Shown here: positions 18,797 to 44,362 of the stretch, one piece after another
Numbering within the stretch: the stretch's first letter is position 1
Layout: every line of letters starts with the position of its first letter
Position numbers and translations under genes: made by a program
Assembly: GCA_035759705.1 (NCBI GenBank)
Contig: DASTUJ010000138.1
Location: forward strand, 87-64,086
Direction: 5' to 3'
DNA: 64,000 nucleotides
Source: Actinomycetota bacterium
GTDB lineage: Bacteria; Actinomycetota; CADDZG01; JAHWKV01
Notes under the pieces: generated by a model
Database searches by the model: none
What the model was told of the DNA's origin: nothing
What the model saw: only the letters and a program-made list of their open reading frames with translations

Positions 18797-19936
18797 ATGC
18801 CTACTATCGAGCAAGTGCGAGAGGTTCTCGCCACCATCAACGACCCCGAGCTCCACCGCAGCATCGTGGAGCTGGGCATGGTCAAGGGTATCGAGGTCGC
18901 TCCGCCGCACGTCACGGTCGACCTGGCCCTCACCATTCCCGGATGCCCCCTCAAGTCCTTCTTCCAGGAGGTCCTGCCGGCCAAGATCCAGGCCTCCTTC
19001 CCCGAGATCACCGCAGTCACGGTCAACCTCGGGTCCATGACCGACGAGGAGCGCAAAGCTCTGGTCGGCGGGGTGAAGAGTGAAAGCCCCTCCTCTTTTG
19101 CCGGCCCGCAGTCGCGCACCACGGTGCTGGCCATTGGAAGCGGAAAGGGCGGGGTCGGCAAATCGACCCTCACCGCCAACCTCGCAGCGGCCCTGGCCAA
19201 ACGAGGTCACTCGGTCGGCCTTCTGGACGCCGACATCTGGGGATTCTCCTCCTCCCGAATGCTGGGGACCTCGGCCAAGCCGACCGTCATCGACGAGCGC
19301 CTTATCGTCCCCGTCGAGGCTTACGGCTTCAAGATGATCTCCATGGGCAACCTGGTCGAGGACGACCGCCCGGTCGTCATGCGAGGCCCCATGCTCCACA
19401 AGATCCTTCAGAGCTTCTTGTCCGACGTTCACTGGGAGGAGCCGGACTACCTCCTCATCGACATGCCCCCCGGCACCGGTGACATCTCCCTTTCTCTGTC
19501 GCAGTTCGTCCCCGGTTGTTCGATCATCCTCGTCACCACCCCCCAGCAGGCTGCCGAGAAGGTGGCCGAGAGGGCCGGGCATATGGCCGGCAAGGTTGGG
19601 ATGAAGGTGGCGGGGGTCATCGAAAACATGGCTTACGCCCTCTGCGAGCACTGCGGAGAGCGGACCTACCCGTTCGGCAGCGGCGGCGGCCAGGAGCTTG
19701 CCGAGACGTTCGGGGCGCCGCTTCTCGGCCAGATCCCGCTGGACCCACCGATGGGCGCCCTCGCCGACCACGGCAAGCCTTCGGTGATCGTCACCCCGGA
19801 GTCACCCTCGGCGAAGGCTTTCGAAGAGGTCACCGAGGCCCTGGTCAAGCTGATTCCACCCAAACCCAGAAGCCGGATGCGCAAGTCGCTCCCGCTCATC
19901 ATGAGCCCTTCGGCCGCCCCCGCCCACACCGGCTGA
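18797..19936 (+). CDS. Mrp/ApbC-family Fe-S cluster carrier ATPase with N-terminal DUF59/MIP18 domain
   Basis: Has the deviant Walker A AIGSGKGGVGKST and a CxxC (ALCEHCG). The N-terminus has the DUF59 signature (INDPELHRSIVELGMV). Confidence 0.9.
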   Translation: MPTIEQVREVLATINDPELHRSIVELGMVKGIEVAPPHVTVDLALTIPGCPLKSFFQEVLPAKIQASFPEITAVTVNLGSMTDEERKALVGGVKSESPSSFAGPQSRTTVLAIGSGKGGVGKSTLTANLAAALAKRGHSVGLLDADIWGFSSSRMLGTSAKPTVIDERLIVPVEAYGFKMISMGNLVEDDRPVVMRGPMLHKILQSFLSDVHWEEPDYLLIDMPPGTGDISLSLSQFVPGCSIILVTTPQQAAEKVAERAGHMAGKVGMKVAGVIENMAYALCEHCGERTYPFGSGGGQELAETFGAPLLGQIPLDPPMGALADHGKPSVIVTPESPSAKAFEEVTEALVKLIPPKPRSRMRKSLPLIMSPSAAPAHTG

Positions 19937-20272
19937 GGATTCCAAAAAGCCACCAGAATTCGCGCTCGGCTGGCTTCAAAAAGAACTGGCCTAATGGGGT
20001 GGCACCTTGTACGATACCGATTGTCATACGCCCCATCAGGGGTGGCAGGATGGTCGGATATGTCTCTCGCCGCGGGGAACGGCGCCAGTTTCTTGGTTTG
20101 ACGGCGTTTTATTCTTCCGATGAGGGGCAGAAACTTCCCAGAAAGGCAGGTTTGTCATTGCCGTTCGGCCTAGGATTCATATCCCACGGACGAATGGGTC
20201 GTTCTGATAGTGTTTGCTAGACTGCGGGTGGAATACCCTTTGATTCGAAATGAAACGTAAGAGGAGGTAGTA

Positions 20273-20767
20273 ATGAAGAAGCTCACGGGACTACTGCTCG
20301 TGACTGTGATAGCAGGAGCGATCTTCGCCGCTCTGGCCCTCCCGGCGTTCGCTGCTAGCAGCAACGCAGGTGGAGTTGTTGTCGAGTCCGGCGATGCACC
20401 TGACTGTGTTGGCGGAAGCTGTGGCGGCGTCATCGTCGAGGACCCGGCTGGCGTCGGCCCCGACTGCACCGGCGGCAACTGCGGCGGAAGCATCTGCCAG
20501 GGCCCCGACTGCGGCAGCTGCGCAGGCGGTAACTGCGGCGGAAGCATCAGCGGTCCGGGAACGGCCGTTGACCACGGTAAGAAGCACGACGCACCGGCCA
20601 AGGCCGCTGGCGCAAAGGCACTGCCCCGCACGGGTATCCCGACCGCAGCCACCCTGGCACTCGGCGCCGGAATGATCCTGGTTGGTCTGTTCTTCACCTT
20701 CGTCGAGCACCCCTCGACCAAGGTCGCAATGGCAGCCATGACCTACCGCCCGAAGCGTCGCCTCTAA
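20273..20767 (+). CDS. Small secreted Cys/Gly-rich protein with LPXTG-type C-terminal sorting signal
   Basis: A signal peptide (MKKLTGLLLVTVIAGAIFAALALPAFA) is followed by three DC(x)GG(S/N)CGG repeats and then LPRTG, a hydrophobic segment and a KRR tail. A strong SD (AGGAGG) is present, and an intrinsic terminator follows immediately. Confidence 0.7.
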   Translation: MKKLTGLLLVTVIAGAIFAALALPAFAASSNAGGVVVESGDAPDCVGGSCGGVIVEDPAGVGPDCTGGNCGGSICQGPDCGSCAGGNCGGSISGPGTAVDHGKKHDAPAKAAGAKALPRTGIPTAATLALGAGMILVGLFFTFVEHPSTKVAMAAMTYRPKRRL

Positions 20768-20784
20768 TACACCGATTCAACCAA

Positions 20785-20816
20785 GCAGCCCCCGGAGACG
20801 GGGGCTGCTTTTTTTG
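20785..20816 (+). terminator. Rho-independent terminator (GCAGCCCCCG-GAGA-CGGGGGCTGC followed by a T7 run)
   Basis: A perfect 10-bp GC stem with a 4-nt loop is followed by TTTTTTT, directly after the stop of the LPXTG gene. Confidence 0.75.
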
Positions 20817-20902
20817 TTGAGTGATGACCGGACATCGCTCACAATGGTTGCGCCCCGGCGGGGGCAACCTGAAGACAACAAGTTCGAGCGGTAGGGGAGA
20901 GC

Positions 20903-22471
20903 TTGGCTCAAGATCAACTGCCCGCACCAACTCCGGCAACCCGGTCGATGCGCAGCCGGGTCGTCTCGTCGTTGTTTGCTCCGCTCGACCTTGCCGCCCT
21001 TGCCTACTTCCGGATCGTGTTCGGCCTGGTGGTCTGCTGGGAGTCCTGGAGATACTTCAAGCTCGGGTGGATCGACGCCTTCTTCGTCGATCCTCCGTTC
21101 CTGTTCACCTACTGGCCGTTTCACTTCGTAGACCCGTGGCCGGGCTGGGGGATGAAGGCTCACTTCCTGGTCCTCGGCGCCGCAGGCATCCTGGTCGCCC
21201 TGGGAGCGTTCTACCGGGCGTCCGCCTCGGTGCTGTTCGTTGCGATGACGTACTTCTTCCTGCTCGACAAGGCCAACTACCTCAACCACCTCTACCTGGT
21301 CTGCCTCCTCGCTTTTCTGATGATCTTCCTGCCCGCCCACCGGACGTGGTCGGTAGACGTCCGGAGGAAGCCGTCCCTTAGGGCAGACACCGCCCCGGCC
21401 TGGACCCTGTGGCTGCTTCGCTTCCAGCTGGCGCTTCCGTACTTCTTCGGGGGCATAGCCAAGCTGAACCCCGACTGGTTAAAAGGGGAGCCGCTCAGGA
21501 TGTGGCTGGCCGAGGACGTGGACTTTCCTCTCATCGGCCGGTTCTTCACCGAGGAGCCGGTCGTCAGGCTGATGACCTACGGCGCGTTGGCGCTGGACCT
21601 GCTGGTCGTCCTCTTCCTGCTGGCGTCCCGGAAAACCCGGCCCTTCGCATACGCCGCCGCAGTCGCTTTCCACTTCATGAACTCGAGGCTGTTCAACATC
21701 GGCATCTTCCCGTGGCTGATGATCGCAGGCACGGCAATCTTCTTTCCTCCCGACACCCCCAGACGGATTCTCGAGGACCTCCGGCGCCGGCCCGGCTCGC
21801 TGCGATCGATTGCATGGTGGATTGGGATGGCCGGCGGCGCTTGGCTCGGCTGGAAGCTGCCGACGACCTTCACGCTGCCCCAGGTGGCGATAGGCGGCCT
21901 CGGAATCGCAATCCTCTGCTGGAGCCTGGCCGAGCTGTTGCGGCCCCTACCGGCCGTTCCTGTGGCCTCCGAGCCGCAGCAGGAGAACGATCGGGCGACC
22001 GGGCCGGCGCTTCGCCCGCCCCGGCCGGTGCTCGCCCTTCTGGTCCTATGGGTCGCCGTGCAGGTGTTGCTGCCTTTCAGGCACCTGGCCGTGCCCGGCA
22101 ACGTCTACTGGACCGAGGAGGGACAGCGGTTCTCATGGATGATGCTCGTTCGGTCCAAGGAGGGCCGGGTCATCTACGAGGTGACCGACGTGAGCCGGGG
22201 TCAGACGTGGGAGCTGTTCCCCGAGAACTACCTGACCCGAAGGCAATCCCTGACGCTTAGGGACAAGCCCGACATGATCGTTCAGTTCGCCCACTACATC
22301 CAGGACCGGCTCCGGGAAGACGGCTACCCGGAGGTGGAGATACGGGCAATCACCGCCATCTCGTTGAACAACAAGCCGGAGCGCCCGGTCATCGACCGGA
22401 ACGTCGACCTGACGAAGGTAAAGGTTCCCTGGTTGGGCAAAGCAGACTGGATCACGGCTGAGGAGCCCTAG
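20903..22471 (+). CDS. HTTM-domain protein (vitamin K-dependent gamma-glutamyl carboxylase-like)
   Basis: A 522-aa polytopic protein. The N-terminal HTTM signature region is LAALAYFRIVFGLVVCWESWRYF...FHFMNSRLFNIGIFPWLMIAG. The C-terminal soluble domain (YWTEEGQRFSWMMLV) is as in bacterial VKGC homologues. Confidence 0.8.
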   Translation: MAQDQLPAPTPATRSMRSRVVSSLFAPLDLAALAYFRIVFGLVVCWESWRYFKLGWIDAFFVDPPFLFTYWPFHFVDPWPGWGMKAHFLVLGAAGILVALGAFYRASASVLFVAMTYFFLLDKANYLNHLYLVCLLAFLMIFLPAHRTWSVDVRRKPSLRADTAPAWTLWLLRFQLALPYFFGGIAKLNPDWLKGEPLRMWLAEDVDFPLIGRFFTEEPVVRLMTYGALALDLLVVLFLLASRKTRPFAYAAAVAFHFMNSRLFNIGIFPWLMIAGTAIFFPPDTPRRILEDLRRRPGSLRSIAWWIGMAGGAWLGWKLPTTFTLPQVAIGGLGIAILCWSLAELLRPLPAVPVASEPQQENDRATGPALRPPRPVLALLVLWVAVQVLLPFRHLAVPGNVYWTEEGQRFSWMMLVRSKEGRVIYEVTDVSRGQTWELFPENYLTRRQSLTLRDKPDMIVQFAHYIQDRLREDGYPEVEIRAITAISLNNKPERPVIDRNVDLTKVKVPWLGKADWITAEEP

Positions 22472-22532
22472 GGCCCGGTAACTGCAGCCGGGCGTCCCCC
22501 GAGGTTATTGCTACCTGCCGGGGCCGGTCCCG

Positions 22533-23095
22533 TCAGTCGCAGCCGTCGGGGTTACGATCCTCGACGCAGACATCGCCGCTTTGTCCGCTGGAGCCGGTTG
22601 CCCCGCTTCGAGCACCGTTGCCTCCGCGGCCGCTGGTGCCGCCGTCGGCTCCGTCGGCGCCGGTGCCGCTGTCGGCATCGCCTCCGCCTCCGGCTCCGCC
22701 CTGTCCGCCGGCGCCATCGCCCCCGCTGCCTCCGCCGCCGTCCGCGCTGTCGTCCCCGGAGCTGCTGTCCGAGCTGCCGCCGGAGCCGCCTCCTCGCCCA
22801 CTGCCGCTCCGCCGGAGCCTCCGTCACCGCTGCCGCCGACCGAGGCGCCGCTGGGACCTCCCGAGCCGCCTCCACCGCCGGACCCGGAGTCGCCCCCGCT
22901 CCCGCCGCCGCCCGAGGACCCCGTGGCGCCGCTGGCGCCGGATTCGAGGATGAACTCCTGCTCGCACCCCGTGGAGTCCGGGCCCGGACCGGAGGTCTCG
23001 CAAAAGTTTTCGGCTGATGCGGTTGAGATCAACGATGCCCCGAGAAGGGCGGCCGAGATCAATGCAACGGCCAAAAGCGTTCTGCGAGTTTTCAT
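22533..23095 (-). pseudogene. Paralog A of the secreted Gly-rich Cys-loop protein family, apparently frameshifted
   Basis: The N-terminus (signal peptide plus AENFCETSGPGPDSTGCEQEFILES) is in one frame from 23095. The conserved C-terminus (GNGARSGATGSSGQSGDVCVEDRNPDGCD*) is in another frame ending at 22533. The frames switch near 22805-22825 within the GGx repeats. Confidence 0.45.
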
Positions 23096-23301
23096 CCCAT
23101 CCTCCTTGTTCCGCCGGTTCTCCGAGCGTGCCCGGTTCGGTCACGAGCCCTCGGGATCCTCTGGAGCGCCTCCTCAGGCATGGTGCTCATGGTGCGTTTG
23201 TTAAGTAGCGTTTGAACAACATACTTGAGTCGCCTATGGAGGTATAGGCAATCCGGCTAATTACATCTTGAGGATTAGAGAGACTCGCCCTACCAGGACG
23301 C

Positions 23302-23333
23302 AAAAAAGGGGCGGCCCGAAGGCCGCCCCTTTT
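23302..23333 (-). terminator. Hairpin terminator (AAAAGGGGCGGCC-CGAA-GGCCGCCCCTTTT), bidirectional-type
   Basis: A perfect 13-bp stem with A/T flanks lies 3' of paralog B. Confidence 0.7.
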
Positions 23334-23355
23334 GCCTTTTCAGGCTGAACTGCTA

Positions 23356-24021
23356 TTAGCAGTCGTTGTTGTTGTCAGCGTCTGCGCAAGCGTCGCCGGA
23401 GTCGCCGGAGTCGCCGGTGGCGCCGCTACGGGCACCGTTGCCGCCGTTACCGGAACGTCCGCCTTCGCCGCCTTCGCCGCCGTCGCCGGTGTCGGCGTCG
23501 CCGCCGTTACCTTCGCCGCCGTCGCCGCCGGTGCCGTCGCCGCCACCTGCGCCGTTGCAGCCGCCGGACTCGTCGCCGGAGCCGTCACATGCGCCGTCGC
23601 CGCCGAGGCCGCCTGCGCCGCCGCCGCCGTCGCCGCCGCCGGTGGTTGCACCGGCGTAGTCGCCGCTACCACCAGCTGCGCCGCCGCCGCCGCCTGCGCC
23701 GCCGTTGCCGCCGCCGTCGCCGCCAGCACCGCCGGCACCTGCGCCGCCGCCGCCGCCGTCGCCGCTACCGCCGGCTGCTGCGCCGGATGCTCCGCCTGCG
23801 CCGCCGTCGCCGGCTGCGCCGGACTCGCCACCGTCGCCACCAGCGCCGGACTCGCCGGTTTCGCCGGTTGCGCCGGTCTCAAGGCCGAACTCCTGGGAGC
23901 ACTCGGTTGTGTCGGGGCCCGGGCCGTTTGCGTCGCAGTTGTTCTCTGCGGCTGCGGTCGGGATGAGCAGTGCTGAAACCATGGCAAGCATCATGAGCAT
24001 GCCAAACATTTTCTTGATCAT
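23356..24021 (-). CDS. Secreted Gly/Ala/Asp-rich (PGRS-like) repeat protein with three conserved Cys pairs, paralog B
   Basis: Signal peptide MIKKMFGMLMMLAMVSALLIPTAAA, then ENNCDANGPGPDTTECSQEF, ~150 aa of GGxGGxGG repeats, a middle CDGSGDESGGC pair and a C-terminal CADADNNNDC*. The SD is GGAGG. Confidence 0.8.
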   Translation of the reverse strand: MIKKMFGMLMMLAMVSALLIPTAAAENNCDANGPGPDTTECSQEFGLETGATGETGESGAGGDGGESGAAGDGGAGGASGAAAGGSGDGGGGGAGAGGAGGDGGGNGGAGGGGGAAGGSGDYAGATTGGGDGGGGAGGLGGDGACDGSGDESGGCNGAGGGDGTGGDGGEGNGGDADTGDGGEGGEGGRSGNGGNGARSGATGDSGDSGDACADADNNNDC

Positions 24022-24270
24022 TCCTACTACCTCCTGGCTAACTGCCGTATTCGATGTGCTTCTGAATTAGCGATGTATCGAACCTGCATGGTGTTGCGGG
24101 AAGTTCAAGCTGCTCGAAATGGAATGGGCGCTACCGGCCGCCTGATAGGCGAAACCGAGCCCCTTCCACCCGATACTCGGGGACTCTATCAGTTTGGCCG
24201 GTGGGAGTGGGCGAACCCGCGAAAAAAAGTTGGGAGCCGCTCCGACGGCGTTCGAGGTATCCCGGAATAG

Positions 24271-24300
24271 AAAGAGGGGCGGCAATTGCCGCCCCTCTTT
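24271..24300 (-). terminator. Hairpin terminator (AAAGAGGGGCGGC-AATT-GCCGCCCCTCTTT)
   Basis: A perfect 13-bp stem 3' of paralog C. Confidence 0.7.
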
Positions 24301-24316
24301 GTCGAGCTTGAAGCTG

Positions 24317-24988
24317 TTAGCAGTCGTTGTTGTTGTCGGCCTCGGCACAAACGTCGCCGGAGGTGCCGGAGTCGCCGGTGCGGCCGCTGCGAGCGCCGTT
24401 GCCGCCGTTACCGGACTGACCGCCCTCGCCGCCTTCGCCGCCGTCGCCGGTGTCGGCGTCGCCGCCGTTACCTTCGCCGCCGTCGCCGCCGGTGCCGCTT
24501 CCGCCACCTGCGCCGTTGCATCCAGCGCTGGTGTCGGTTGCGCTGCCGTCACATGCGCCGTCGCCGCCTGCGCCACCTGCGCCGCCGCCGCCGTCGCCGC
24601 CGCCGGTGGTTGCACCGGAGTAAGCGCCACTGCCGCCGGCTGCTCCGCCGCCGCCGCCTGCGCCGCCGTTGCCGCCGCCGTCGCCGCCGGCACCGCCGGC
24701 ACCTGCGCCGCCGCCGCCGCCGTCGCCGCTACCGCCTGCTGCTGCGCCGCTTGCGCCGCCGTCGCCGCCGGCACCAGCGTCGCCCGAGGCTCCGCCTTCG
24801 CCGCCGTCGCCGCTTGCGCCGGTTGCGCCGGTTTCGCCGGACTCGAGCTCAAAAGCCTGCTCGCAGCCGGTCTCGTCAGCGCCGGGACCGTTTGCGTCAC
24901 AGTTGTTCTCCGCAGATGCGGTGGGAACGAGCAGTGCGGCCGACAGGGCCAGCATCAGCATCATTCCGAAGAGGTTCTTGACCTTCAT
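24317..24988 (-). CDS. Secreted PGRS-like Gly-rich Cys-pair protein, paralog C
   Basis: About 90% identical to paralog B, with the same three Cys pairs and signal peptide MKVKNLFGMMLMLALSAALLVPTASA. Confidence 0.8.
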   Translation of the reverse strand: MKVKNLFGMMLMLALSAALLVPTASAENNCDANGPGADETGCEQAFELESGETGATGASGDGGEGGASGDAGAGGDGGASGAAAGGSGDGGGGGAGAGGAGGDGGGNGGAGGGGGAAGGSGAYSGATTGGGDGGGGAGGAGGDGACDGSATDTSAGCNGAGGGSGTGGDGGEGNGGDADTGDGGEGGEGGQSGNGGNGARSGRTGDSGTSGDVCAEADNNNDC

Positions 24989-25180
24989 TTTCGGTGTCCT
25001 CCTAGAGATTCGATCGAATCAACTCCCGAAGGAGTTGGGTGGAGCGTTTGATGCGCGCTCGACGCAAGGAGAGTTAGCACCTTCCGCCGTGCATCGGGGA
25101 GTCTATCAAACCGTTCGGCCAAAAGGGCACTCGGTGAGAAAAAGTTCTTCCGAAAATTGTTGACGGCTCTTTCGAGAAAT

Positions 25181-25210
25181 AAAACGGCGGCCCCGAAGGG
25201 CCGCCGTTTG
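25181..25210 (-). terminator. Hairpin terminator (AAAACGGCGGCCC-CGAA-GGGCCGCCGTTTG)
   Basis: A 13-bp stem 3' of paralog D. Confidence 0.7.
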
Positions 25211-25227
25211 TTGCCAGGGGTTGAGCC

Positions 25228-25896
25228 TTAGCAGTTGTTGTTGTTGTCAGCGTCTGCACAAGCGTCGCCGGAGTCGCCGGAGTCGCCGCTACGGCCGCTG
25301 CGTGCGCCGTTGCCGCCGTTACCGGAACGTCCGCCTTCGCCGCCTTCGCCGCCGTCGCCGGTGTCGGCGTCGCCGCCGTTACCTTCGCCGCCGTCGCCGC
25401 CGGTGCCGTCGCCGCCTGCGCCGCCGTTGCATCCAGCGCTGGTGTCGGTTGCGCTGCCGTCACATGCGCCGTCGCCGCCTGCGCCGCCTGCGCCGCCGCC
25501 GCCGTCGCCGCCGCCGGTGGTTGCACCGGCCCAAGCGCCACTGCCGCCGGCTGCTCCGCCGCCGCCACCTGCGCCGCCGTTGCCGCCGCCGTCGCCGCCG
25601 GCACCGCCGGCACCTGCGCCGCCGCCGCCGCCGTCGCCGCTACCGCCGGCTGCTGCGCCGGATGCTCCACCTGCGCCGCCGTCGCCTGCTGCGCCGGAGT
25701 CGCCGCCTGCGCCGCCGTCACCGGTTGCGCCGGTCTCGCCGGTCTCGCCGGTGGTGAGCTCGAGCTCCTGCGAACACTCGGTGGTGTCCTCGCCCGGGCC
25801 GTTGGCGTCACAGTTGTTCTCAGCTGCTGCGGTAGGAACCAGAAGTGCGGCCGCGAGGGCCAGCATCATCAGGGTGCCCATGAGTTTCTTGATCAT
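25228..25896 (-). CDS. Secreted PGRS-like Gly-rich Cys-pair protein, paralog D
   Basis: Starts at MIKKLMGTLMMLALAAALLVPTAAA (ATG 25896). It is near-identical to B and C, and the C-terminus is CADADNNNNC*. Confidence 0.8.
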   Translation of the reverse strand: MIKKLMGTLMMLALAAALLVPTAAAENNCDANGPGEDTTECSQELELTTGETGETGATGDGGAGGDSGAAGDGGAGGASGAAAGGSGDGGGGGAGAGGAGGDGGGNGGAGGGGGAAGGSGAWAGATTGGGDGGGGAGGAGGDGACDGSATDTSAGCNGGAGGDGTGGDGGEGNGGDADTGDGGEGGEGGRSGNGGNGARSGRSGDSGDSGDACADADNNNNC

Positions 25897-26350
25897 CTGC
25901 GTGATTCCTTCCTTTGATGTTGCCTTGCTTATGCGCTGCATCCGCCTCCTGGACCTTGCCGCCAGGGGCGAAATTCTTTTGCGAGACTTCGCAACTACTG
26001 GTAAATCCCCGCCGTATCTCGATGCAAAACTTTGGTGTAGACGAAACTAGCGCCCAGTTAAATGAGCACGCCGAATGTTACCGCTCCAAACCGGCCGGTT
26101 CAAGGAATTGTTTCAGAACCCCGCTCAGCGTTCGCAGATCCTCCACCGCCGTTTCCGCGTATCGAGTTTACGGGCGTGCGGGGAGTATGTGAACGGGAGG
26201 ATCGACGGAAATCCGGCGTCTCGCAGCCGAGTTAGACTCTTAAGGCATTCGCCGAAGAGCAACAGCGGCCGGGAGACAGATTTGACGGAGAAGAATTCCA
26301 GGCGGGACGACAGGATCCTCGATCCCGAGCTCCTCAACGACGCGGCCTCG

Positions 26351-32259: not shown

Positions 32260-33156
32260 GTGGCGCGTGTTTCTCAGAAAGAGTTGATCGACCGGCTCGT
32301 CGAGTCGTGCCACACCATCGTCCTGCTCGGGGGCATCGACTCCGGTAAAACCAGCTTCGGGCTCAGCCTCGCGGAAGCCGCCCGGCGTAAGGGAATCTCG
32401 GTTGCCTACGTCGACGCCGACCTGGACCAGTCCACGGTCGGCCCGCCTACCTGTGTGGGCCTCAAGTTCTGCACCGACCTGGAGAGGGTTGACGCCCAGA
32501 CCGTCCGGGACGCCGACGAGCTCGGCTTCGTCGGCGCCTACTCGGCCGAGGGAAACCTGACGGCGGTGGTGGCCGGAACCGCCCGCCTGGTCAACCACGC
32601 CCGGGACGCCGGGTGCCGGCTCGTCATCGTCGACACGGGAACGCTCATCTCCGGGACGGACGCCGAGCTGCTCAAATTCCACAAGCTGGACCTGGTCCGG
32701 CCCGACCACGTGGTCGGCTTTCAAAGAGGCGAGGAGCTCGACCCCATCCTCGGCGTTCTAAGCCGCTTCTTCTCGCTCGACGTCACGGCACTCAAGGTCG
32801 ACGGTGAGATCGCCGAACGGTCCGCCGAGGACCGGCTCGCGGCCCGGGAGAAGGCCCTCGCCTCCTTCTTCGTCCCGCCGATATCCAAGTGGCGGGTTAA
32901 GCGGACGGTTTTTATGCCCACGCTCGCTCCCGACACCGATGCGAGGCGCCTGGACGGCCTGCTGGTGGGGCTCGAGGACGGCAAGGGCAAGTGCCGCGGC
33001 ATCGGCCTTCTGGAGTACACCGAGGAGGGCGATGTGCTCAGGATGGTATCGTCAGTAGGCACCGGTGCCAGAGGTCTCAGGCTCGGATCGGTCCGCCTGA
33101 CCGTGGAAGGTAAGACCATCGGCAGGTTCGAAGCAGAAGAGATCTTCAGCAGCTAG
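32260..33156 (+). CDS. P-loop NTPase, Clp1/Grc3-like polynucleotide kinase family (tentative)
   Basis: The Walker A LLGGIDSGKTSFGLSLA resembles archaeal Clp1 (GxxDxGKTT). It also has a VIVDTGTL Walker-B-like strand. Length is 298 aa. Confidence 0.55.
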   Translation: MARVSQKELIDRLVESCHTIVLLGGIDSGKTSFGLSLAEAARRKGISVAYVDADLDQSTVGPPTCVGLKFCTDLERVDAQTVRDADELGFVGAYSAEGNLTAVVAGTARLVNHARDAGCRLVIVDTGTLISGTDAELLKFHKLDLVRPDHVVGFQRGEELDPILGVLSRFFSLDVTALKVDGEIAERSAEDRLAAREKALASFFVPPISKWRVKRTVFMPTLAPDTDARRLDGLLVGLEDGKGKCRGIGLLEYTEEGDVLRMVSSVGTGARGLRLGSVRLTVEGKTIGRFEAEEIFSS

Positions 33157-35819: not shown

Positions 35820-36560
35820 GTGGCTGACGCCTCGGTCGGGCTGCCGATCGCCTTTATCGCCGGGGCCGCTTCCTTCCTCTCTCCCTGCGTACTTCCCCTG
35901 CTGCCCGGCTACCTCTCCTACATGTCAGGGATGTCGCTGGAGATGGTGCGGGAGGGCAACGCGCCGGTCCGCCGGCTGCTCGGGCCGACTCTGTTGTTCG
36001 TTGCCGGCTTTTCGACCATCTTCGTTGCCCTGGGGACCTCGGCCAGCCTGGCCGGCTCGCTTTTGAGGGACCACCAGCTGATCCTGACCCGTATTGCAGG
36101 CGTGCTGGTCATTCTGATGGGGCTGGCTTTCATGGGCCTGCTGCCGCTCCCCTTCCTCTATCGGGAGAAGCGCCTGGACATGAGGCGGGGGCGCACCTAC
36201 ACCGGCAACTACCTGATGGGCCTGAGCTTCGGGCTCGGGTGGACTCCCTGCATCGGCCCGACCCTCGGCGCGACGCTGGTCATCGCCTCCCAGGCGGACC
36301 GGGTGGGGGAGGGGGCGCTCCTGCTGTTCGTGTACTCGCTGGGTCTCGGCATTCCGTTCGTGTTGTCGGCGCTCGGCGTGTCCCGGCTCACCGGGGCCCT
36401 CGCCTTTTTCCGCAGCCACCAACAGGCGATACTGCGGGTAAGCGGAGGGCTGCTGGTGGCGTTCGGGCTGCTCCTGTTCTTCAACCGGGTGTACGTGATC
36501 TCCGCCTGGATCCAGCGGGGGATGGACGCAGCGGGCCTGGAGGAGCTGATAGGCATATGA
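35820..36560 (+). CDS. ccdA: Cytochrome c-type biogenesis protein CcdA (DsbD-like thiol-disulfide transporter)
   Basis: The two conserved Cys are present in SPCVLPLLPGYL and GWTPCIGPTLG. Confidence 0.9.
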   Translation: MADASVGLPIAFIAGAASFLSPCVLPLLPGYLSYMSGMSLEMVREGNAPVRRLLGPTLLFVAGFSTIFVALGTSASLAGSLLRDHQLILTRIAGVLVILMGLAFMGLLPLPFLYREKRLDMRRGRTYTGNYLMGLSFGLGWTPCIGPTLGATLVIASQADRVGEGALLLFVYSLGLGIPFVLSALGVSRLTGALAFFRSHQQAILRVSGGLLVAFGLLLFFNRVYVISAWIQRGMDAAGLEELIGI

Positions 36561-36793
36561 GCGACGTGGTCCTTTACACGAAGCCGGGCTGCTGCCTGTG
36601 CGACGACGCAAAAGCGGCCCTGGAGAGGGCCGGCATCGGGTTCCGGGAGGTGGACATCAATCGGGACCCCGGCTTGTTCGCCGAGTACGGCATCCGCATC
36701 CCCGTGGTGGAGGTCGGCGGTGTGCCTGCATTCGAGGCGGGGATGAACCCGGACGAGATTGCGGAACTGGTGGACGAGGCGCGGGGCCTCTAG
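36557..36793 (+). CDS. Glutaredoxin-like protein (NrdH/GlrX-like), translationally coupled to ccdA
   Basis: An ATGA overlap joins it to ccdA. CCLCDDAK is a CxxC in a thioredoxin-fold context (LYTKPGCCLC...VPVVEV). Confidence 0.8.
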   Translation: MSDVVLYTKPGCCLCDDAKAALERAGIGFREVDINRDPGLFAEYGIRIPVVEVGGVPAFEAGMNPDEIAELVDEARGL

Positions 36794-36802
36794 CTCGGCA
36801 AA

Positions 36803-36836
36803 ACAAAAAGGCCCGGCCGGGTGGCCGGGCCTTTCG
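36803..36836. terminator. Bidirectional hairpin terminator (AAAAAGGCCCGGCC-GGGT-GGCCGGGCCTTT)
   Basis: A 9-11 bp GC stem between two convergent genes, flanked by an A-run and a T-run. Confidence 0.65.
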
Positions 36837-36850
36837 TCGGGGCTTTGTTT

Positions 36851-37894
36851 CTAAGCGATCTGAGGCTGGGTCAGCCGCGCTTCCTTCTCGATCTTCGAAA
36901 CGCCGATCAGGTGGGCGATCATCAGGATCACGCTGATCGCCAGGTAGATGAACGCCGGCACCCGTACCGATCCCCGGACCCGCACTGCTGCGACCAAGGC
37001 ATCGTCCGGAGCGCCCGGCTGTCCGGTCATGTCCAGTGTGGCGAAAGGCACGTTCGGCTTGATGGCGTCGTCCTTGCGGAATCCGTAGTCGATGAGCTTG
37101 CCGGTCTTGTCGGCGTTGAGCGTGATGGTCTGGCCCTCGGCGTCGACCTCGAGAATGGGCATTCCCGGAGTCACATCCGTGCCTTCCTCGACCAGGAACT
37201 CCTTGACGGTGCCCTCGGCTTTGCCGCCCAGGTCGCCGGACATCATCTGCTCGATTGCGACCGCCCGGCCGACTGCGAGGACGGAGTCCTTCCCGGCCAC
37301 GTCGACTTCCTTCATCCTGACGTCGGTGGTTGAGAACTTCTCAGGGTCGAGTGCGATGTCGCCCTTGGTCATGTCCTCGACCGACTCGACGACACCGGGG
37401 ATGGGGCTCGTGGCCTCCATCACCAGCGCCTCCATTACCGGGTCGGCGTTCTCCAGCTCGGAGGCCAGGTCGTCGCCCCCTTCGAGGTCGGCCAGGTGGA
37501 CGTCCTCCTCGGGCTCCTCCCAGCCTTCGCCGTCGGGGTAGTCCGCGGTGTCCCAGGTTCCCCACCGGGTGTCGACCTCGTCCAGCTCAGGACCGACCGC
37601 CGCCGGATGCCATGCGGTGTCCGTTCCCAGATCACCCCAGAAACCAGCTTCACCCTTCGGGCCAAGGCCCGTGGCGAACCAGATGGCCGAAAGAAGCGTC
37701 ATCACCGCAAACAGGCAGGCGCCGGTTACGAAGTAGCCGAGCTTGGCACCCAGGATCATCGACGTAAGCAGCCAGACGCTGCCCACGAAGACGACGATGA
37801 ACGCGATGGTGATTGCAATCCCCTTGATGAAGGTACCGCTGCCTCCGGAGGTCGCGGCCTCGGTAGCGAGTAGTGCGATGTCGGAGGTATTCAA
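36851..37894 (-). CDS. Hypothetical membrane protein at the end of the cytochrome b6c operon
   Basis: Three N-terminal TM helices, an acidic Glu/Asp-rich periplasmic region, then a lipoyl/hybrid-motif-like beta segment and a C-terminal TM helix. Confidence 0.55.
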   Translation of the reverse strand: MNTSDIALLATEAATSGGSGTFIKGIAITIAFIVVFVGSVWLLTSMILGAKLGYFVTGACLFAVMTLLSAIWFATGLGPKGEAGFWGDLGTDTAWHPAAVGPELDEVDTRWGTWDTADYPDGEGWEEPEEDVHLADLEGGDDLASELENADPVMEALVMEATSPIPGVVESVEDMTKGDIALDPEKFSTTDVRMKEVDVAGKDSVLAVGRAVAIEQMMSGDLGGKAEGTVKEFLVEEGTDVTPGMPILEVDAEGQTITLNADKTGKLIDYGFRKDDAIKPNVPFATLDMTGQPGAPDDALVAAVRVRGSVRVPAFIYLAISVILMIAHLIGVSKIEKEARLTQPQIA

Positions 37895-37920
37895 CGGCTT
37901 GCTCCCAATCCGAGAAGCAT

Positions 37921-38841
37921 CTACAGGCTCCTCTCGTAATCCACAACCAATTGGATCTGCTCATCGGTGAGGGTTCCGCCCCAGGCGGGCATCGCTCCGG
38001 TGCCCTGGCCGGACGTGCCGTAGGGCTGTCCGGGCTTGGAGCCTTCCTTCACGAAGGTCTTGTGATCTTCGATGTTCGGGAACATCGCCGACTCGGACCC
38101 ACCCTTCATCGCAGGACCGGATCCTCCGGCGCCGCCGATACCGTGGCAGGTGGAACAGAACTGGGTGAAGATCTGGTCGCCGGTGGCGCCCTCCTCCACC
38201 TCCGCCTCCTGCTGGATGCTCTCGAGCCAGTTGACGATGTCGTCAAGCTCCTGCTCGGTCAGAGGGCCGCCGTACTCGCCGCCCCATGTGGGCATGTCGG
38301 TTCCCGGGCGTCCACGTTCGATGGTCTCGCGGATGTAGGCGCGGGCATCCTCGAAGCCGGGAGGCGGCTCCTCGTAGCGGGCGAACACGGTCTTGAGCTC
38401 GGGCACCTGCACGATGGATCGGGTCCCGGTGTCCGGGTTGAGGAACTCGTTGGTTCCGCCCTCGGCACCCTCGCCGTGGCAGCGGGCGCACTCCTTGCCC
38501 TTCGAGTTGGTGGCTCCGGTCTGCTGGTTGGTGGTCAGGGCGTAGTACTCCTCGCCCCGCTCGAGCGACTCCTCGGCAAACTCCTTTTCGTTGTCCAGGC
38601 GGTTCTGGGGCTCCTGCACCCAGTAGGCCGGCATGAAGAAGGCAAAGAACAGCGTGAGGGCCAGGCCCCAGCCGTGGATCTTGGTTAGGCGTGACGACTC
38701 CAGCACTGCGTCGATGTCTGCCGGCCTGAGGGCCGGGGGCACCTTCGACTTGTTGCCGGATCCCGAGCGCGTCCTGAGCACAACCAGGGCGGCGCCGGCG
38801 GCAATGCCTCCAACTAGAACTGCGATAAGTAGCTGACCCAT
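37921..38841 (-). CDS. qcrC: Di-haem cytochrome c (QcrC-like)
   Basis: An N-terminal TM anchor and two CxxCH motifs (CARCHG, CSTCHG). Confidence 0.9.
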   Translation of the reverse strand: MGQLLIAVLVGGIAAGAALVVLRTRSGSGNKSKVPPALRPADIDAVLESSRLTKIHGWGLALTLFFAFFMPAYWVQEPQNRLDNEKEFAEESLERGEEYYALTTNQQTGATNSKGKECARCHGEGAEGGTNEFLNPDTGTRSIVQVPELKTVFARYEEPPPGFEDARAYIRETIERGRPGTDMPTWGGEYGGPLTEQELDDIVNWLESIQQEAEVEEGATGDQIFTQFCSTCHGIGGAGGSGPAMKGGSESAMFPNIEDHKTFVKEGSKPGQPYGTSGQGTGAMPAWGGTLTDEQIQLVVDYERSL

Positions 38842-38878
38842 GATCTCCTGCTAACTTGCTGTTCGAACGGTCAAAGTT

Positions 38879-39580
38879 TTAGGCGGTAACGCAGTGAGCC
38901 CCTTCAGGCTGCGGCTGCGTGGTGATGGTTCCCCGGGGGGCTCCGGCGATGATGGTGGCGGTGTCGACGATGATCTCGCCGTCCACCACCTCGACCCTGA
39001 ACTGGTCGAGGCTGCGAGGCGCCGGGCCATCCCGGTACTCGCCGTTCACGGAGTACTTCGAGCCGTGGCACGGGCACTCGAACCACTTTGCGGGCGGGCA
39101 CCACGGAACGCTGCAGCCCAGGTGAACGCACTTGCGGTAGAGGGCCATGAAGCCGGAGACATCGACGTTGGCTGCCTTGTAGGCGGGAACGTCGGCCGCG
39201 TCGGCCGGGTCGCCTTCGTACAGGGTCAGGTAGAAACGGCCGTCCGGGATGAACTTGGGCTCCCGGCTTGCGAGCTCGGCGCGAAGGTCGTCCTCGTTGC
39301 CGACGGTGATCTTCGAGCCGAATCCGCCCCGCAGGCGGGGGTACAAAAAGTCGATGGAGGCCAGGGCGAACTGCCCCAGGAAGGCGAGGGAGGCAAACCC
39401 TACGCCCCGCAGGAGGAACTTGCGGCGGCCGACGTCGGTGACGTCGGAAACCGGCTGTACCTCGAGCTGGCCTTCGGTGACCGCGCCGGCTTTGCGGCTG
39501 CGGGCGCCGATGAGAGCAAAAGGAATCCAGGCCAGAAGAGAGGCCAGGGCAATGATGAGGGCGAACTGAATAGGTGTCAT
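38879..39580 (-). CDS. qcrA: Rieske [2Fe-2S] subunit
   Basis: CVHLGC and CPCHGS Rieske boxes. The start ATG at 39580 overlaps the upstream gene by 4 nt. Confidence 0.9.
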   Translation of the reverse strand: MTPIQFALIIALASLLAWIPFALIGARSRKAGAVTEGQLEVQPVSDVTDVGRRKFLLRGVGFASLAFLGQFALASIDFLYPRLRGGFGSKITVGNEDDLRAELASREPKFIPDGRFYLTLYEGDPADAADVPAYKAANVDVSGFMALYRKCVHLGCSVPWCPPAKWFECPCHGSKYSVNGEYRDGPAPRSLDQFRVEVVDGEIIVDTATIIAGAPRGTITTQPQPEGAHCVTA

Positions 39581-40425
39581 AGCTCGAAAAATATCCCCGC
39601 GTCCCATGGGTAGACAAAGTTGAATCCAGGGCCTCTCATGATCGACCCTAGCATGCCGAGAATTGCGAACATGAGCATGAAGATGGTCCACATCGAGATG
39701 GCCAGCTTCCGGTCACCGGGCTTGTTGGACGGGTTCCGGTCGATGTACGGCGTTGCCATCAGGCCCAGGATGAGCCACTGCGGAATCGAAACGCCCGCCA
39801 CCTGCGGGTGGAAGTAACGAAGCAGCTCCTGCAGTCCGAGGAAGTACCACGGCGCCTTGGAGGGGTTCGGTGTGACGTTGATGTTGGCAAGCTCACGAAG
39901 CTCGGCGTTCACAAAAACGGAGACGATGGTCAGAAGCGCAGTTACCGCCAGAACGGCGAGGAACTCGCCCGCCATCAGGTGCGGCCAGGTGTTGACCCGG
40001 TCGATGGGCTCCTTCTCGACTCTCTGGATAGATTCCGGCTTGACGACCGCCAGCAGACGCTGCAGACGCTCGGGAGCGGCGTCGCCGGCCCCTACGCCTG
40101 CCCTTGCCGCCGCCCTGCGTCCACCGGCGGCCGGAGCCGCAGCAGGAGGGGCGGCTGCCGGAGCAGAGGCGGCGGCAGCAGCCGGAGCAGCAGCTACGGC
40201 TGCGGGCTCGGGTGCCGAAGCAGCAGCAGCCGCGGGTTTCTCGGCAGACTCATCAGCGGCAGCGGGCTTGTCAGCAGCAGGAGTCTTGGGAGCTCCCCCG
40301 CCTGCAGCAGCCTTCTTGGCGCGGTGCCGTGCAGCCTTGGCTCGAGCCTCGGCAACCGCCGGGGATGAGCCCTTGGCATTTTCTTCGGCCAGCGTCTGGT
40401 CGAATATTTCGTCAGGAGTGGGCAT
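39577..40425 (-). CDS. Cytochrome b6f subunit-IV-like (cytochrome b C-terminal half) with long Ala/Pro-rich N-terminal extension
   Basis: The C-terminal ~150 aa correspond to the PetD/cytochrome-b C-terminal helices (PWYFLGLQELLRYF, ISMWTIFMLMFAILG). It is preceded by a ~120-aa low-complexity Ala/Pro/Lys region. Confidence 0.8.
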   Translation of the reverse strand: MPTPDEIFDQTLAEENAKGSSPAVAEARAKAARHRAKKAAAGGGAPKTPAADKPAAADESAEKPAAAAASAPEPAAVAAAPAAAAASAPAAAPPAAAPAAGGRRAAARAGVGAGDAAPERLQRLLAVVKPESIQRVEKEPIDRVNTWPHLMAGEFLAVLAVTALLTIVSVFVNAELRELANINVTPNPSKAPWYFLGLQELLRYFHPQVAGVSIPQWLILGLMATPYIDRNPSNKPGDRKLAISMWTIFMLMFAILGMLGSIMRGPGFNFVYPWDAGIFFEL

Positions 40426-40459
40426 CAGTTCGTCCTAGTCCGTCGTGGAGTGGTGCAGA

Positions 40460-41251
40460 TCATAGTGGTCCCGAAATTCCGCCGTCCTTGCGGACTCGCC
40501 AGAAGTGCACGGCCATCAGCAGCGTGATGACAAACGGCAGTGCAAGCACGTGCAGCGTGTACCAGCGGATCAGAGTCCCGGCACCGATCTGAACGCCTCC
40601 GAGAAGGATGAACGAGACCTCTTTACCAACCAGCGGCGACTCGTAACCCATCTGTGTGCCGACGGTGACCGCCCAGATCGCCAGCTGGTCCCAGGGCAGC
40701 AGGTAGCCGGTAAAGGCCAGGAGCAGTGTGAGGAGCAGCAGAACGACTCCGATGACCCAGTTGAACTCCCGCGGCGGCTTGTAGGAGCCGGTGTAGAAGA
40801 CCCGGGACATGTGCAGGAAGACGGTGACGACCATCAGGTGGGCGCTCCAGCGGTGCATGTTTCTCACCAGCTGGCCGAACGCCACCGAGGTTGCCAGCCC
40901 GACCATGTCGGTGTAGACGACCTCGGTCGAGGGCCGGTAGAAGAACATCAGGAAGATTCCGGTGATCGTCAGGAAGATGAACAGGAAGAAGGAAAGGCCG
41001 CCCAGACACAAGGTGTACGAGAGCTTGATTCCGTGCCGCTTCACCTTCACCGGGTGGAGGTGGTACAGGACGGAGTTCATGATCACGTAAGCGCGGTTAC
41101 GTGGGGAGTCCTGGTATCCCTTCGTCAGGACCGATCCGGGCCTGAAGATGGAACGCCAAACCTGGCCGCCTCTCAGGCCGTCCCAAGCACCCTTTGCCAG
41201 AGCGCCCGGGTGGCGCAGGCCACCAAGCTTTTCTTTCAGATTTGCCGCCAA
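40460..41251 (-). CDS. qcrB: Cytochrome b6-like (split cytochrome b N-terminal half)
   Basis: Four-helix haem-binding core with conserved His pairs ([33 protein letters not shown]). At 263 aa it has b6 length rather than that of a fused cytochrome b. Confidence 0.9.
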
Positions 41252-41276
41252 CCCGTTCTCCTTGTGTCTTAGGTTG

Positions 41277-41690
41277 CTACGAAGTTGCGCCGGAAACCTT
41301 GCCCATCGCCCTCGCCGGAGCCTTCTGGGCCTCCAGCCTGCCGATGGTCAGCGCCCCCGTGGGACACCTTTCAACGCACAGCAGGCACCGGGTGCACGCA
41401 TCGTCGTCAATCACGAACAAAATGTCATTGGCTTTCATGTCCCGGGCTATCTCTTCCGAGCCGGCCTCCGCAACGATGTTGGGAGTGAGCATGAAGATGC
41501 AGTACCAGGGGCAGATGTCGACGCAGCCCTCGCAGAGAATACACAGTTCGGGAATGAGCCCGATGTACCGGGGCGGCTTGCGTACGGACTTGACCCAGGA
41601 AGCTTCGACGTCCTGCATGACGTAGTCGGTGCGCAGGCGCGGCTTCTCAATGTCGTTCTTCTCGCTAAACGGATCCTGCGGGTATGTCAT
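41277..41690 (-). CDS. 2x[4Fe-4S] ferredoxin-domain protein
   Basis: [12 protein letters not shown] and [12 protein letters not shown] cluster motifs. Confidence 0.8.
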
Positions 41691-42031
41691 TTCCCGGGGA
41701 GGTATCCCTTAACGCCCTCGCTGCCCCTGAGGCCGAGGCGCCGGCGGCGCTTCTCACCCAGGATGTAGGTCGCAGCTACGGGAATTGCAAAAATGAAGGT
41801 CTGGACGCCCATGGTGATCGCATCGTGGATGCGAACCAGGGTGTAGGGGTCCTTGAACTCGATGCCCGAGACACTCTTGATGAACGCCGCGATGGACTCG
41901 GAGTTTCCGTCCCAGGCGTAGCGGAACATCGACGGCAGAAAACCCAGGGTCACGATCAAAATTCCCGTGATGATCGTGGACAGGATGATCGCCCGGACCC
42001 AGGTCATCGGCTTGTCAGTTTGTTTGCTCAA
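41687..42031 (-). CDS. Small hypothetical membrane protein (possible accessory subunit)
   Basis: 114 aa with two TM helices. It is translationally coupled (4-nt overlap) to the ferredoxin gene. Confidence 0.5.
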   Translation of the reverse strand: MSKQTDKPMTWVRAIILSTIITGILIVTLGFLPSMFRYAWDGNSESIAAFIKSVSGIEFKDPYTLVRIHDAITMGVQTFIFAIPVAATYILGEKRRRRLGLRGSEGVKGYLPGK

Positions 42032-42145
42032 AGTAAGTGGTTCCCTCTTTGGTCTGTTCCGCCGTTCGGTTCGTGTGTCGGCGTCGGGCGCATTATAGCC
42101 GACGGTCCTGGCGACACTTCGGCCACTAACTGCACAGCCGACACT

Positions 42146-42295
42146 CTACTTTGCCGCGCCCTTTTTTTCAGAAGCCCGCAACTCGTCGATGCGCTTTTCG
42201 AGCGCCCGCTGACGCCTGGAAACCGAAAAAAGAAACATAACAATCGCCGCAAAAACCAGCAGATAGGCGAGTCCCAGAAAGCCGAGGCCGTCCAT
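42146..42295 (-). CDS. ccmD: Haem exporter protein CcmD-like (49 aa)
   Basis: MDGLGFLGLAYLLVFAAIVMFLFSVSRRQRALEKRIDELRAS... is a single TM helix plus a basic/coiled tail, immediately downstream of ccmC. It is missed by the ORF track (below 60 aa). Confidence 0.55.
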   Translation of the reverse strand: MDGLGFLGLAYLLVFAAIVMFLFSVSRRQRALEKRIDELRASEKKGAAK

Positions 42296-42332
42296 GTCAG
42301 GCCCGGGGGGTGCGGCGGCAGATGTTCACGGG

Positions 42333-43052
42333 CTAAAGACTACCCGCAGCGCGGTGGGTTATGACCGCGTTCTCCAAAGAGTCGCTCTCGAGCTCCATGA
42401 CCTCGTCCTCCAGCTTGATCACCCTGACCCCCAATGCAAGCAGGACCAGGTACAAAAGCGTGAAGACCGCGAACATCAGGACCAGCACGATCTGCATCTC
42501 CGGCGGCAGGGCGGCCGAGGCTTCGGGGCGGATCACGGTGCGGGACGGGTGCTGGCCCCGCCACCAGTCGACCGAGAAGTGCACGAGCGGCACCACCATG
42601 AACCCTGCGATGCCGATGACCGCGCCGATGCGGGCGCCCCGGGTCTCGTCGCTGGCGTTCGCCCGGAAGGTCAGGTACCCGAGGTAGATGAGAAACAGGA
42701 CGAGGGTCAAGGTGAGCCGGGGGTCCCACGCCCAGAACGCCCCCCAGATGGGCTTCCCCCACATGGCGCCGGTGATCAGCGTGATGCCGGTGAAGAGAAC
42801 CCCGACCCTGGCACTGCCCTGGGCGACCCAGTCCCAGCGGGACTCGGAGGTCTTGAGGTAGGCGACCGAGCAGGCCAGAACCACCCCGAACGCCAGGTAG
42901 GCGACCCATGCGGACGGCGCATGGACGTAGAGGATCCGCTGCGACACGCCCTGGAAGGCCTCGGTGGGAACCCAGAAGAAAATTAGGGCCAGGCCCGTCA
43001 GGAACGCGGCGGCCAGAATCGTTTGCGTGAGCTGGAGTGGGTCTTTTTTCAT
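42333..43052 (-). CDS. ccmC: Haem exporter protein CcmC
   Basis: Has the WWD domain WAWDPRLT and conserved His residues. Confidence 0.9.
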   Translation of the reverse strand: MKKDPLQLTQTILAAAFLTGLALIFFWVPTEAFQGVSQRILYVHAPSAWVAYLAFGVVLACSVAYLKTSESRWDWVAQGSARVGVLFTGITLITGAMWGKPIWGAFWAWDPRLTLTLVLFLIYLGYLTFRANASDETRGARIGAVIGIAGFMVVPLVHFSVDWWRGQHPSRTVIRPEASAALPPEMQIVLVLMFAVFTLLYLVLLALGVRVIKLEDEVMELESDSLENAVITHRAAGSL

Positions 43053-43753
43053 TCCTCGATCACAAATTCGAAGGTCACGGCTCCGAGAGTCAGGAAGATC
43101 ACGTCGAAGACTGCCAGAAGGATAAACCAGCGCAGTTCGTTACCGAACCCGTTCTCGATCAGAAGCGTGGAGGTGAGCTTGGAGGCTCCCAGGATCACCG
43201 GCAGGGTCAACGGGAACGTGAGCAGCGGCAGCATGAGCGACCGGGCCTCCGCATGCTGGGTGGCTGCGCCGAACAGGGTGCCCACCGCGGCCATTCCCAG
43301 GCTGGCCACAAGCATCACCGGAAGGATCTGCGGGAACAGCGACCCCGGCGCGATGTTGGCGAAAAGCATAAAAAGCGGGATTGCAACCATCTCGGTTGCC
43401 AGCAGAAAGGCCACGTTGGCAATCAGCTTGCCGGTGTAGAGGGCGGCGGGGTCCACGGGGGCGAGGAGCAGACCGTCGGCGGCCGAGGTCTCGCGGTCCG
43501 CCGCAGCGCTCCTTCCAAACCCGATGACCGCAGCGAAAAAGATGCTGGTCCACAGCAGCAGCCCCGTTATGTCCCGGGCCGACAGGGCGCCGGCGACCGG
43601 CACCGGCACCGGGGCCCTGAGGGCGCCCGGCGGCAGGGCGAAGGTCAGCAGGAAAACCAGGCAGAGGGCGAATACCAGCATCACCGGGGCGATCTGCCTG
43701 GCCCGCGACTCACCCCTCAGGTCCTTCGCGGCCAGCGCCAGCACAGTCCTCAA
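43049..43753 (-). CDS. ccmB: Haem exporter permease CcmB
   Basis: A 234-aa 6-TM ABC-2-like permease, overlapping ccmA and ccmC by 4 nt each. Confidence 0.85.
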   Translation of the reverse strand: MRTVLALAAKDLRGESRARQIAPVMLVFALCLVFLLTFALPPGALRAPVPVPVAGALSARDITGLLLWTSIFFAAVIGFGRSAAADRETSAADGLLLAPVDPAALYTGKLIANVAFLLATEMVAIPLFMLFANIAPGSLFPQILPVMLVASLGMAAVGTLFGAATQHAEARSLMLPLLTFPLTLPVILGASKLTSTLLIENGFGNELRWFILLAVFDVIFLTLGAVTFEFVIEE

Positions 43754-44352: not shown

Positions 44353-44362
44353 CGGTGGGGGG

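Follow-up and report, generated by a model that had tools for sequence, protein, structure and literature searches.

A cell-wall sorting signal is defined as an LPXTG motif, a hydrophobic segment and a positively charged cluster; class A and class C sortases read LPXTG, and class E sortases, which are typical of soil actinobacteria, read LAXTG (PMC5148588). LPXTG proteins of the Pfam family Gram_pos_anchor (PF00746), including the substrates of Staphylococcus aureus SrtA, are built from a signal peptide, a flexible linker, the LPXTG motif, a hydrophobic segment of ~23 amino acids (aa) and a basic C-terminus. Here, a small gene whose product has this same layout is described. It was located at positions 20273–20767 (+) of a 64,000-nucleotide (nt) stretch of DNA (assembly GCA_035759705.1, contig DASTUJ010000138.1; the whole stretch is referred to as the window) from an uncultured soil lineage of the Actinomycetota, starts with ATG and encodes a product of 164 aa, which is probably a sortase-sorted, wall-anchored surface protein. 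Unlike the PF00746 proteins, it contains a conserved helical insert of ~13–16 aa and an orphan passenger domain.

Two further groups of anchored proteins resemble the small protein. Members of the enterococcal EF2685/EF0750 family (NF053819) are likewise very small (~100–160 aa) and have the same overall layout, but their passenger domains are unrelated, they belong to a different phylum, and the match to this family, the single one obtained with NCBIfam, was weak (15.9 bits at a cut-off of 47) and covered the sorting signal only. The long chaplins ChpA–C of Streptomyces, which are anchored by class E sortase, are also small wall-anchored proteins of soil actinobacteria, and their genes lie close to those of secreted paralogues which they may help to organise at the cell surface; chaplins carry LAXTG and hydrophobic, amyloid-forming domains, whereas the small protein has an LPxTG motif with an invariant proline and a Cys/Gly-rich head (PMC5148588).

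The open reading frame (ORF) at 20273–20767 truly codes for a protein and is subject to purifying selection. When it was compared codon by codon with eight orthologues, the differences were mainly at third positions (6/3/37 differences at codon positions 1/2/3 for L012, 7/5/49 for L013 and 25/14/66 for L014; L numbers denote related loci), and synonymous changes outnumbered non-synonymous ones in all eight comparisons. Together with this third-position bias, the 73 homologue clusters that were retrieved at 42–97% identity by a word-indexed search of 5.8 billion proteins identify the ORF as a true gene. All 73 clusters originated from soil or other metagenomes, or from metagenome-assembled genomes labelled Actinomycetota, Acidimicrobiia or Actinomycetes, and 12 loci, all from uncultured Actinomycetota, were obtained when every GTDB species was represented by one genome. 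Antisense ORFs overlapping 20273–20767 were discarded as artefacts of the GC-rich sequence, since the third-position pattern of the small gene rules them out. A preliminary description of the locus, made from the sequence alone, had extended the gene to 20816; this end takes in the terminator, and the true end of the coding sequence is 20767.

The product is divided into six parts. The signal peptide proposed in the preliminary description is present at aa 1–27 (MKKLTGLLLVTVIAGAIFAALALPAFA; 20273–20353, +) and is kept in the homologues: it is of the Sec type, composed of MKK, a hydrophobic core and AFA/A, with an AxA cleavage site ahead of A28 that forms a family-wide pattern, and it was modelled as a helix (residues 2–26) by AlphaFold2 (AF2). 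The mature Cys/Gly-rich domain comprises aa 28–94 (67 aa; 20354–20554, +), as delimited from the sequence and an alignment of 39 homologues. It is followed by a charged linker at aa 95–116 (20555–20620, +), which is variable and unconserved across homologues and predicted to be disordered, with an AF2 predicted local distance difference test score (pLDDT) below 50. The LPRTG pentapeptide occupies aa 117–121 (20621–20635, +) and the hydrophobic, membrane-spanning segment aa 122–144 (IPTAATLALGAGMILVGLFFTFV; 20636–20704, +), which was modelled as a helix at residues 124–145 with a pLDDT of 72–88. The protein ends with an extended, conserved tail of 20 aa, which is probably cytoplasmic (aa 145–164, EHPSTKVAMAAMTYRPKRRL; 20705–20767 including the stop codon, +), which terminates in KRRL.

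Conservation was calculated per region as the majority-residue fraction in the alignment of 39 sequences, which reach down to ~50% identity. The fraction was 0.62 for the signal peptide, 0.84 for the Cys domain, 0.34 for the linker (11–36 aa across homologues), 0.98 for the five residues of LPxTG, 0.78 for the membrane segment, whose length is fixed at 23 aa in every homologue, and 0.71 for the tail. L117, P118, T120 and G121 were invariant (39 of 39 sequences), and position 119 was R in 36, K in two and V in one. Since the invariant pentapeptide stands directly after an unconstrained linker, it is to be regarded as a functional LPxTG motif. The preliminary description had left room for a chance motif; L-P-x-T-G in 39/39 homologues, preceded by a linker that is near random, settles this doubt in favour of a real one. 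Exactly eight Cys residues were counted in 38 of the 39 homologues, the remaining one carrying an internal deletion. The tail is likewise constrained, with P147 and A152 invariant and Y158, P160, R162 and R163 conserved to at least 90%.

The sortase-type sorting signal claimed in the preliminary description is supported by the invariant LPxTG, a hydrophobic helix and a basic C-terminus. In Pfam, the sole domain match of the protein was Gram_pos_anchor with 15.1 bits at a gathering score of 20; this match spanned profile positions 2–35 of 43, i.e. everything except the basic end, and was obtained at E ≤ 0.1 for 17 of the 39 family members, with a best E of 0.0068. The tail had previously been described as longer than usual, which holds true. 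The basic cluster (K/R)RR lies at the extreme C-terminus and is separated from the membrane helix by the conserved insert of ~13–16 aa (motif HPSTKxAMAxx), which is located ahead of the YRPKRRL end and was modelled by AF2 as a second short helix (residues 147–156). Upon in silico deletion of the insert, the Gram_pos_anchor score rose to 18.8 bits with the tail YRPKRRL and, above the threshold, to 21.5 bits with the tail KRRL, so that the insert accounts for the low native score. Judged from the sequence, the sorting signal is canonical save for this inserted conserved segment. The insert is probably located at the inner side of the membrane, towards the cytoplasm, where it may contribute to retention or to a function of the cleaved C-peptide. 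Because the proline of LPxTG is invariant, the motif suggests that the reading sortase would be LPXTG-specific (class F-like or of another class) rather than class E.

The eight Cys residues of the head are placed at positions 45, 50, 65, 70, 75, 80, 83 and 88, with the spacing C-x4-C, then C-x4-C-x4-C-x4-C-x2-C-x4-C, and P(D/N)C and short VVVE / VIVED strands precede the head modules. Three modules of the type DC(x)GG(S/N)CGG had been claimed earlier; two of them, PDCVGGSCGG and PDCTGGNCGG, are exact, and the third is the variant DCGSCAGGNCGG. No relative of the head was found in Pfam, NCBIfam or, using a family profile, among PDB sequences (best E = 2.5). A HMMER profile search of 1.84 billion representatives at 50% identity returned only the family's own cluster and three other matches. 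These were P0074, a 1211-aa Sushi/CCP-repeat protein in which the string NxGGVxxxGDAPxC was matched 14 times and which was judged spurious, P0075, a generic LPGTG protein with only the signal peptide and the anchor in common, and P0076, a fragment. From these searches, the passenger head is considered a clade-restricted orphan domain. In the AF2 model, it shows short strands only, after each CGG. Exported proteins in Actinobacteria undergo oxidative folding, by which their cysteines are oxidised. Given this and the even, invariant Cys count, the eight residues most likely form four disulfides within a small cross-linked module.

On the basis of these elements, the following path is proposed. 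The protein would be exported via Sec, and the signal peptide would be removed after AFA27. The 67-residue Gly-rich head would then fold into a small module with four disulfides, carried on the disordered charged linker of variable length. LPRTG, the membrane helix and the basic end would act as the cell-wall sorting signal and hold the precursor in the membrane, until a sortase would cut between Thr120 and Gly121 and a mature protein of ~93 residues would be joined to peptidoglycan.

Several observations weigh against this path. The native signal remained under the Pfam gathering threshold in every member checked, and the NCBIfam scan gave no match to TIGR01167. The conserved tail of 20 aa is unlike that of ordinary sorting signals and could be a sign that the protein stays in the membrane uncleaved. 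For the head, the AF2 model based on the 39-sequence alignment reached a pLDDT of 55–66, a low confidence for the putative disulfide knot and one that did not justify a fold search. Concerning the enzyme, the sortase signature T[LVIM]x[TS]C was absent from all six-frame ORFs of the window and of 22 related loci, and Pfam scans of 57 window ORFs, which identified an ABC transporter, cytochrome c maturation, bc-complex, complex I and other housekeeping functions, contained no sortase. Neither by Pfam nor by the TLxTC motif was a sortase found in the 64-kb window or in ~300 kb of flanks at 28 related loci, and no further protein with an LPXTG or LAXTG motif was noted in these sequences.

The main alternative is a permanent type I membrane protein, in which the C-terminal helix and the cytoplasmic amphipathic helix would serve as anchor or interaction site and LPxTG would be a juxtamembrane sequence that stays uncut. 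The long, conserved and predicted-helical tail, the native Pfam score and the missing sortase in the window and related-locus sequence are all in line with it. On the other hand, an invariant juxtamembrane pentapeptide that is exactly L-P-x-T-G and correctly spaced from a 23-aa helix and a basic end is very unlikely to arise by chance (roughly of the order of 1e-4, estimated from typical residue frequencies with about ten positions allowed), the signal exceeds the Pfam threshold once the insert is removed, and sortases are common among Actinobacteria (PMC5148588). A permanently membrane-bound protein is therefore rated as unlikely, and wall anchoring by a sortase is preferred.

The small gene is equipped with its own expression signals. 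In the spacer of ~336 bp between mrp/apbC and the small gene, three conserved non-coding blocks were recognised in an alignment of nine upstream regions, and they are kept in loci with coding identity down to ~70%. The first block, TGTACGATACCG (20008–20019, +), is conserved in most of the nine regions and is a possible regulatory site. The second, GAAACTTCCCAGAAAG (20130–20145, +), contains a TTCnnnGAA dyad and may be an operator; several invariant columns of the alignment (A203, T206, T207 and C209) belong to this block. The third, TCTGATAGTGTTTGCTAGACTGCGG (20203–20227, +), contains TAGACT (20218–20223) after TGC, which is a candidate for the (extended) −10 element of a promoter specific to the small gene; a sigma-70 consensus scan gave no full −35/−10 match around 20203–20227, and the −10 assignment is inferred from conservation and the TAnnnT pattern alone. 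The Shine-Dalgarno sequence AGGAGG (20262–20267, +) is placed 5 nt before the ATG, and AGGAGGTA is invariant in nine loci.

At the other end of the gene, the textbook intrinsic terminator announced in the preliminary description was indeed found at 20783–20816 (+), with a 12-bp stem including nine G-C pairs, a GAGA loop and TTTTTTT. Its stem-loop (20783–20810) begins sixteen nt past the stop codon and folds at −31.7 kcal mol−1 (z = −7.5 vs dinucleotide shuffles). An Rfam scan of 19800–26200 at E ≤ 1 gave sub-threshold chance matches only, the sX12 match being the terminator itself. The conserved upstream blocks, candidate promoter, perfect Shine-Dalgarno sequence and strong terminator are best explained by an independent monocistronic unit.

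Alternatively, the eight Cys residues could be metal ligands of a small extracytoplasmic protein that binds or buffers Cu, Zn or Fe, which would be compatible with wall anchoring. This would fit the closely set CxxxxC and CxxC pairs, which have Asp and Asn beside them, and also the constant position of the small gene next to mrp/apbC, which encodes an Fe-S carrier, and to a NifU-like gene; mrp/apbC was found immediately upstream of it in every locus with readable upstream sequence. Mrp and NifU are, however, cytoplasmic, while the small protein is Sec-exported, and the small gene, at a distance of ~336 bp from mrp, forms a transcription unit of its own. Moreover, mrp belongs to a glnA-glnR-x-nifU-mrp block that is conserved and syntenic across the clade, so that the adjacency may be inherited gene order only, and the protein shows no similarity to known metal-binding families. 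A metal-binding role is thus considered improbable, and functional coupling to mrp/apbC and nifU was rejected in view of the cytoplasmic location of their products and of the separate upstream blocks, Shine-Dalgarno sequence and terminator of the small gene.

Downstream of the small gene, the window encodes a protein with HTTM and VKGC lumenal domains, a homologue of the vitamin-K-dependent carboxylase (20903–22471, +; Pfam 284.6 and 142.2 bits). It keeps the equivalents of Lys218 and His160 of human GGCX, as seen in a phmmer alignment to 9wfn_A. In the preliminary description, the small protein had been regarded as a possible second substrate or partner of this enzyme; for example, Glu or Asp residues before the Cys modules would be carboxylated in the membrane-held precursor. 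The proteins modified by vitamin-K-dependent carboxylases (those with a Gla domain, gamma-carboxylated conotoxins and, for Asp, the substrate of MloH) are similarly secreted, small and Cys-rich, and in some genomes the small gene lies beside the carboxylase homologue. The two genes are on the same strand and directly adjacent in four lineages (the group of the window, L013, L023 and L027), both proteins face the membrane exterior, the acidic residues D41, D44, E56 and D57 are conserved beside the modules, and MloH, a bacterial homologue, carboxylates Asp (PMC12647623).

The downstream synteny does not follow this proposal. Among the 13 lineages with readable downstream sequence, these four were the only ones with HTTM directly downstream, and it was missing at the locus in the other nine (identity of the small protein to that of the window: L012 92%, L026 86%, L014 75%, L016 70%, L017 69%, L028 58%, L019 56%, L020 55%, L021 51%). 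In L012 and L026, the Cys domain is nevertheless almost the same as in the window. In L012, the next gene at a distance of 0.6 kb encodes a Gly-rich secreted protein instead of HTTM, and the mature Cys domain differs from that of the window by one residue despite the lack of an adjacent HTTM gene. Lineages without HTTM at the locus may still carry it elsewhere in their genomes. Conserved co-occurrence with the carboxylase gene was accordingly not found at this locus, and co-transcription or translational coupling was not found either, as the strong terminator at 20783–20816 intervenes.

Carboxylase substrates require a propeptide or exosite recognition element and a cluster of Glu (or Asp) (PMC12647623). 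The small protein, in contrast, has no Glu cluster, with E38/39 and E56 as the only two conserved Glu positions, and neither a recognisable propeptide nor a propeptide-like hydrophobic helix was present between signal peptide and head. From locus to locus, the HTTM proteins are 59–69% identical, compared with 79–95% for the Mrp, HD and small proteins and 88–95% for the flanking genes; by this lower identity amid better-conserved flanks and by its patchy presence (4/13), HTTM looks like an accessory gene that is fast-evolving or exchanged. For its family, HTTM plus lumenal domain, more than 1800 relatives were counted at E ≤ 1e-30, among them proteins of Chloroflexi and Planctomycetota, and the family extends to phyla in which the small protein, itself a single 50% cluster, was not found; a 48% identical HTTM in L025 has unrelated neighbours. 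Patchy synteny and the terminator between the genes argue against a specific enzyme–substrate or partner relation, and the proposal is considered quite improbable.

Gly-rich secreted proteins are encoded more regularly downstream of the small gene than any other neighbour, and the window encodes four Gly/Asp/Glu-rich paralogues of 194–237 aa (22511–25941, −). They contain three Cys pairs each and have no Pfam or NCBIfam match. All four have a signal peptide, and their Cys pairs stand at the N-terminus (AENNCDANGPGxDTTEC), in the middle and at the C-terminus (..CADADNNNDC); GGx-like triplets occur in runs. Relatives were located in L014 (14158–16709), L012 (11079–11606), L020 (10766–11010) and L024 (1966–2544), and in almost every lineage they lie within a few kb of the small gene, whether HTTM is there or not. 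In L024, HTTM (61% identical) is directly followed by a Gly-rich secreted protein in an otherwise different downstream context. Should HTTM act on a protein of this locus, the Gly-rich acidic proteins are better candidates than the small LPXTG protein.

Some additional observations were made around these genes. The L024 contig begins 93 nt ahead of HTTM and shows an in-frame stop at nt 9–11, GC-rich hairpins and a T/C-rich run; as this layout matches gene end, terminator and HTTM of the window, a small-protein gene may be located just beyond the contig edge. In L025 (7916–13504), which belongs to a different phylum (genome of 4.98 Mb), HTTM is followed within 1.5–5 kb by two such genes, one for a secreted protein that contains runs of poly-Asp/Gly as well as GPTG repeats resembling collagen, the other for a protein with a weak Pfam Collagen match; this hints at a wider association of HTTM with Gly-rich acidic secreted proteins. 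A second textbook terminator (25182–25209, −; 12-bp stem, nine GC) was found just downstream of the last Gly-rich paralogue (25228–25941, −). Long Arg/Pro/Ala-rich ORFs overlapping the Gly-rich genes at 22500–25900, in other frames and on the opposite strand, were discarded as by-products of the GGN/GCC-rich repeats.

For the wall-anchored small protein, the best guess is that its head would be a structural or docking element of an envelope that includes the Gly-rich acidic secreted proteins, and not a partner of HTTM. A putative wall-anchored docking partner of Gly-rich proteins is a reasonable idea. The extended version, in which it would be the docking subunit of a lineage-specific surface layer of Gly-rich proteins with their terminal Cys pairs, is put forward as a long shot; in the HTTM sublineages, components of this layer (the Gly-rich proteins or the anchor itself) would be carboxylated at Glu/Asp by a menaquinone-dependent carboxylase. 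If true, no protein modification system of the Gla type would have been described in bacteria before.

Further regions of the window were recorded independently of the small gene. At 35820–48829, a cluster for thiol/haem handling and respiration is located, with CcdA/DsbD_TM at 35820–36560, dihaem cytochrome c, Rieske, cytochrome b and 4Fe-4S proteins at 37921–41690 (−), and system I cytochrome c maturation with CcmC-like, CcmA-like, CcmF and CcmE proteins at 42333–48829 (−). System I is not the usual actinobacterial route of cytochrome c maturation. At 32260–33156 (+), a bacterial protein is encoded whose P-loop domain is of the polynucleotide-kinase-like CLP1_P type (93 bits); at 61923–62885 (−), beside nuo genes, a phage-type lysozyme carries PG_binding_1 and PG_binding_3 as fused domains.

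For the HTTM enzyme, comparative genomics does not back a link between the small gene and this vitamin-K-carboxylase homologue, and a hunt for its substrates should begin with the Gly-rich acidic secreted proteins, not with the small gene. To the sortase-type surface proteins, the family described here adds a clade-restricted passenger domain without a Pfam, NCBIfam or PDB relative, and a variant of the sorting signal with a conserved extended cytoplasmic tail, which is missed by standard models. Surface-proteome predictions for uncultured Actinomycetota will undercount such variant-tailed proteins.

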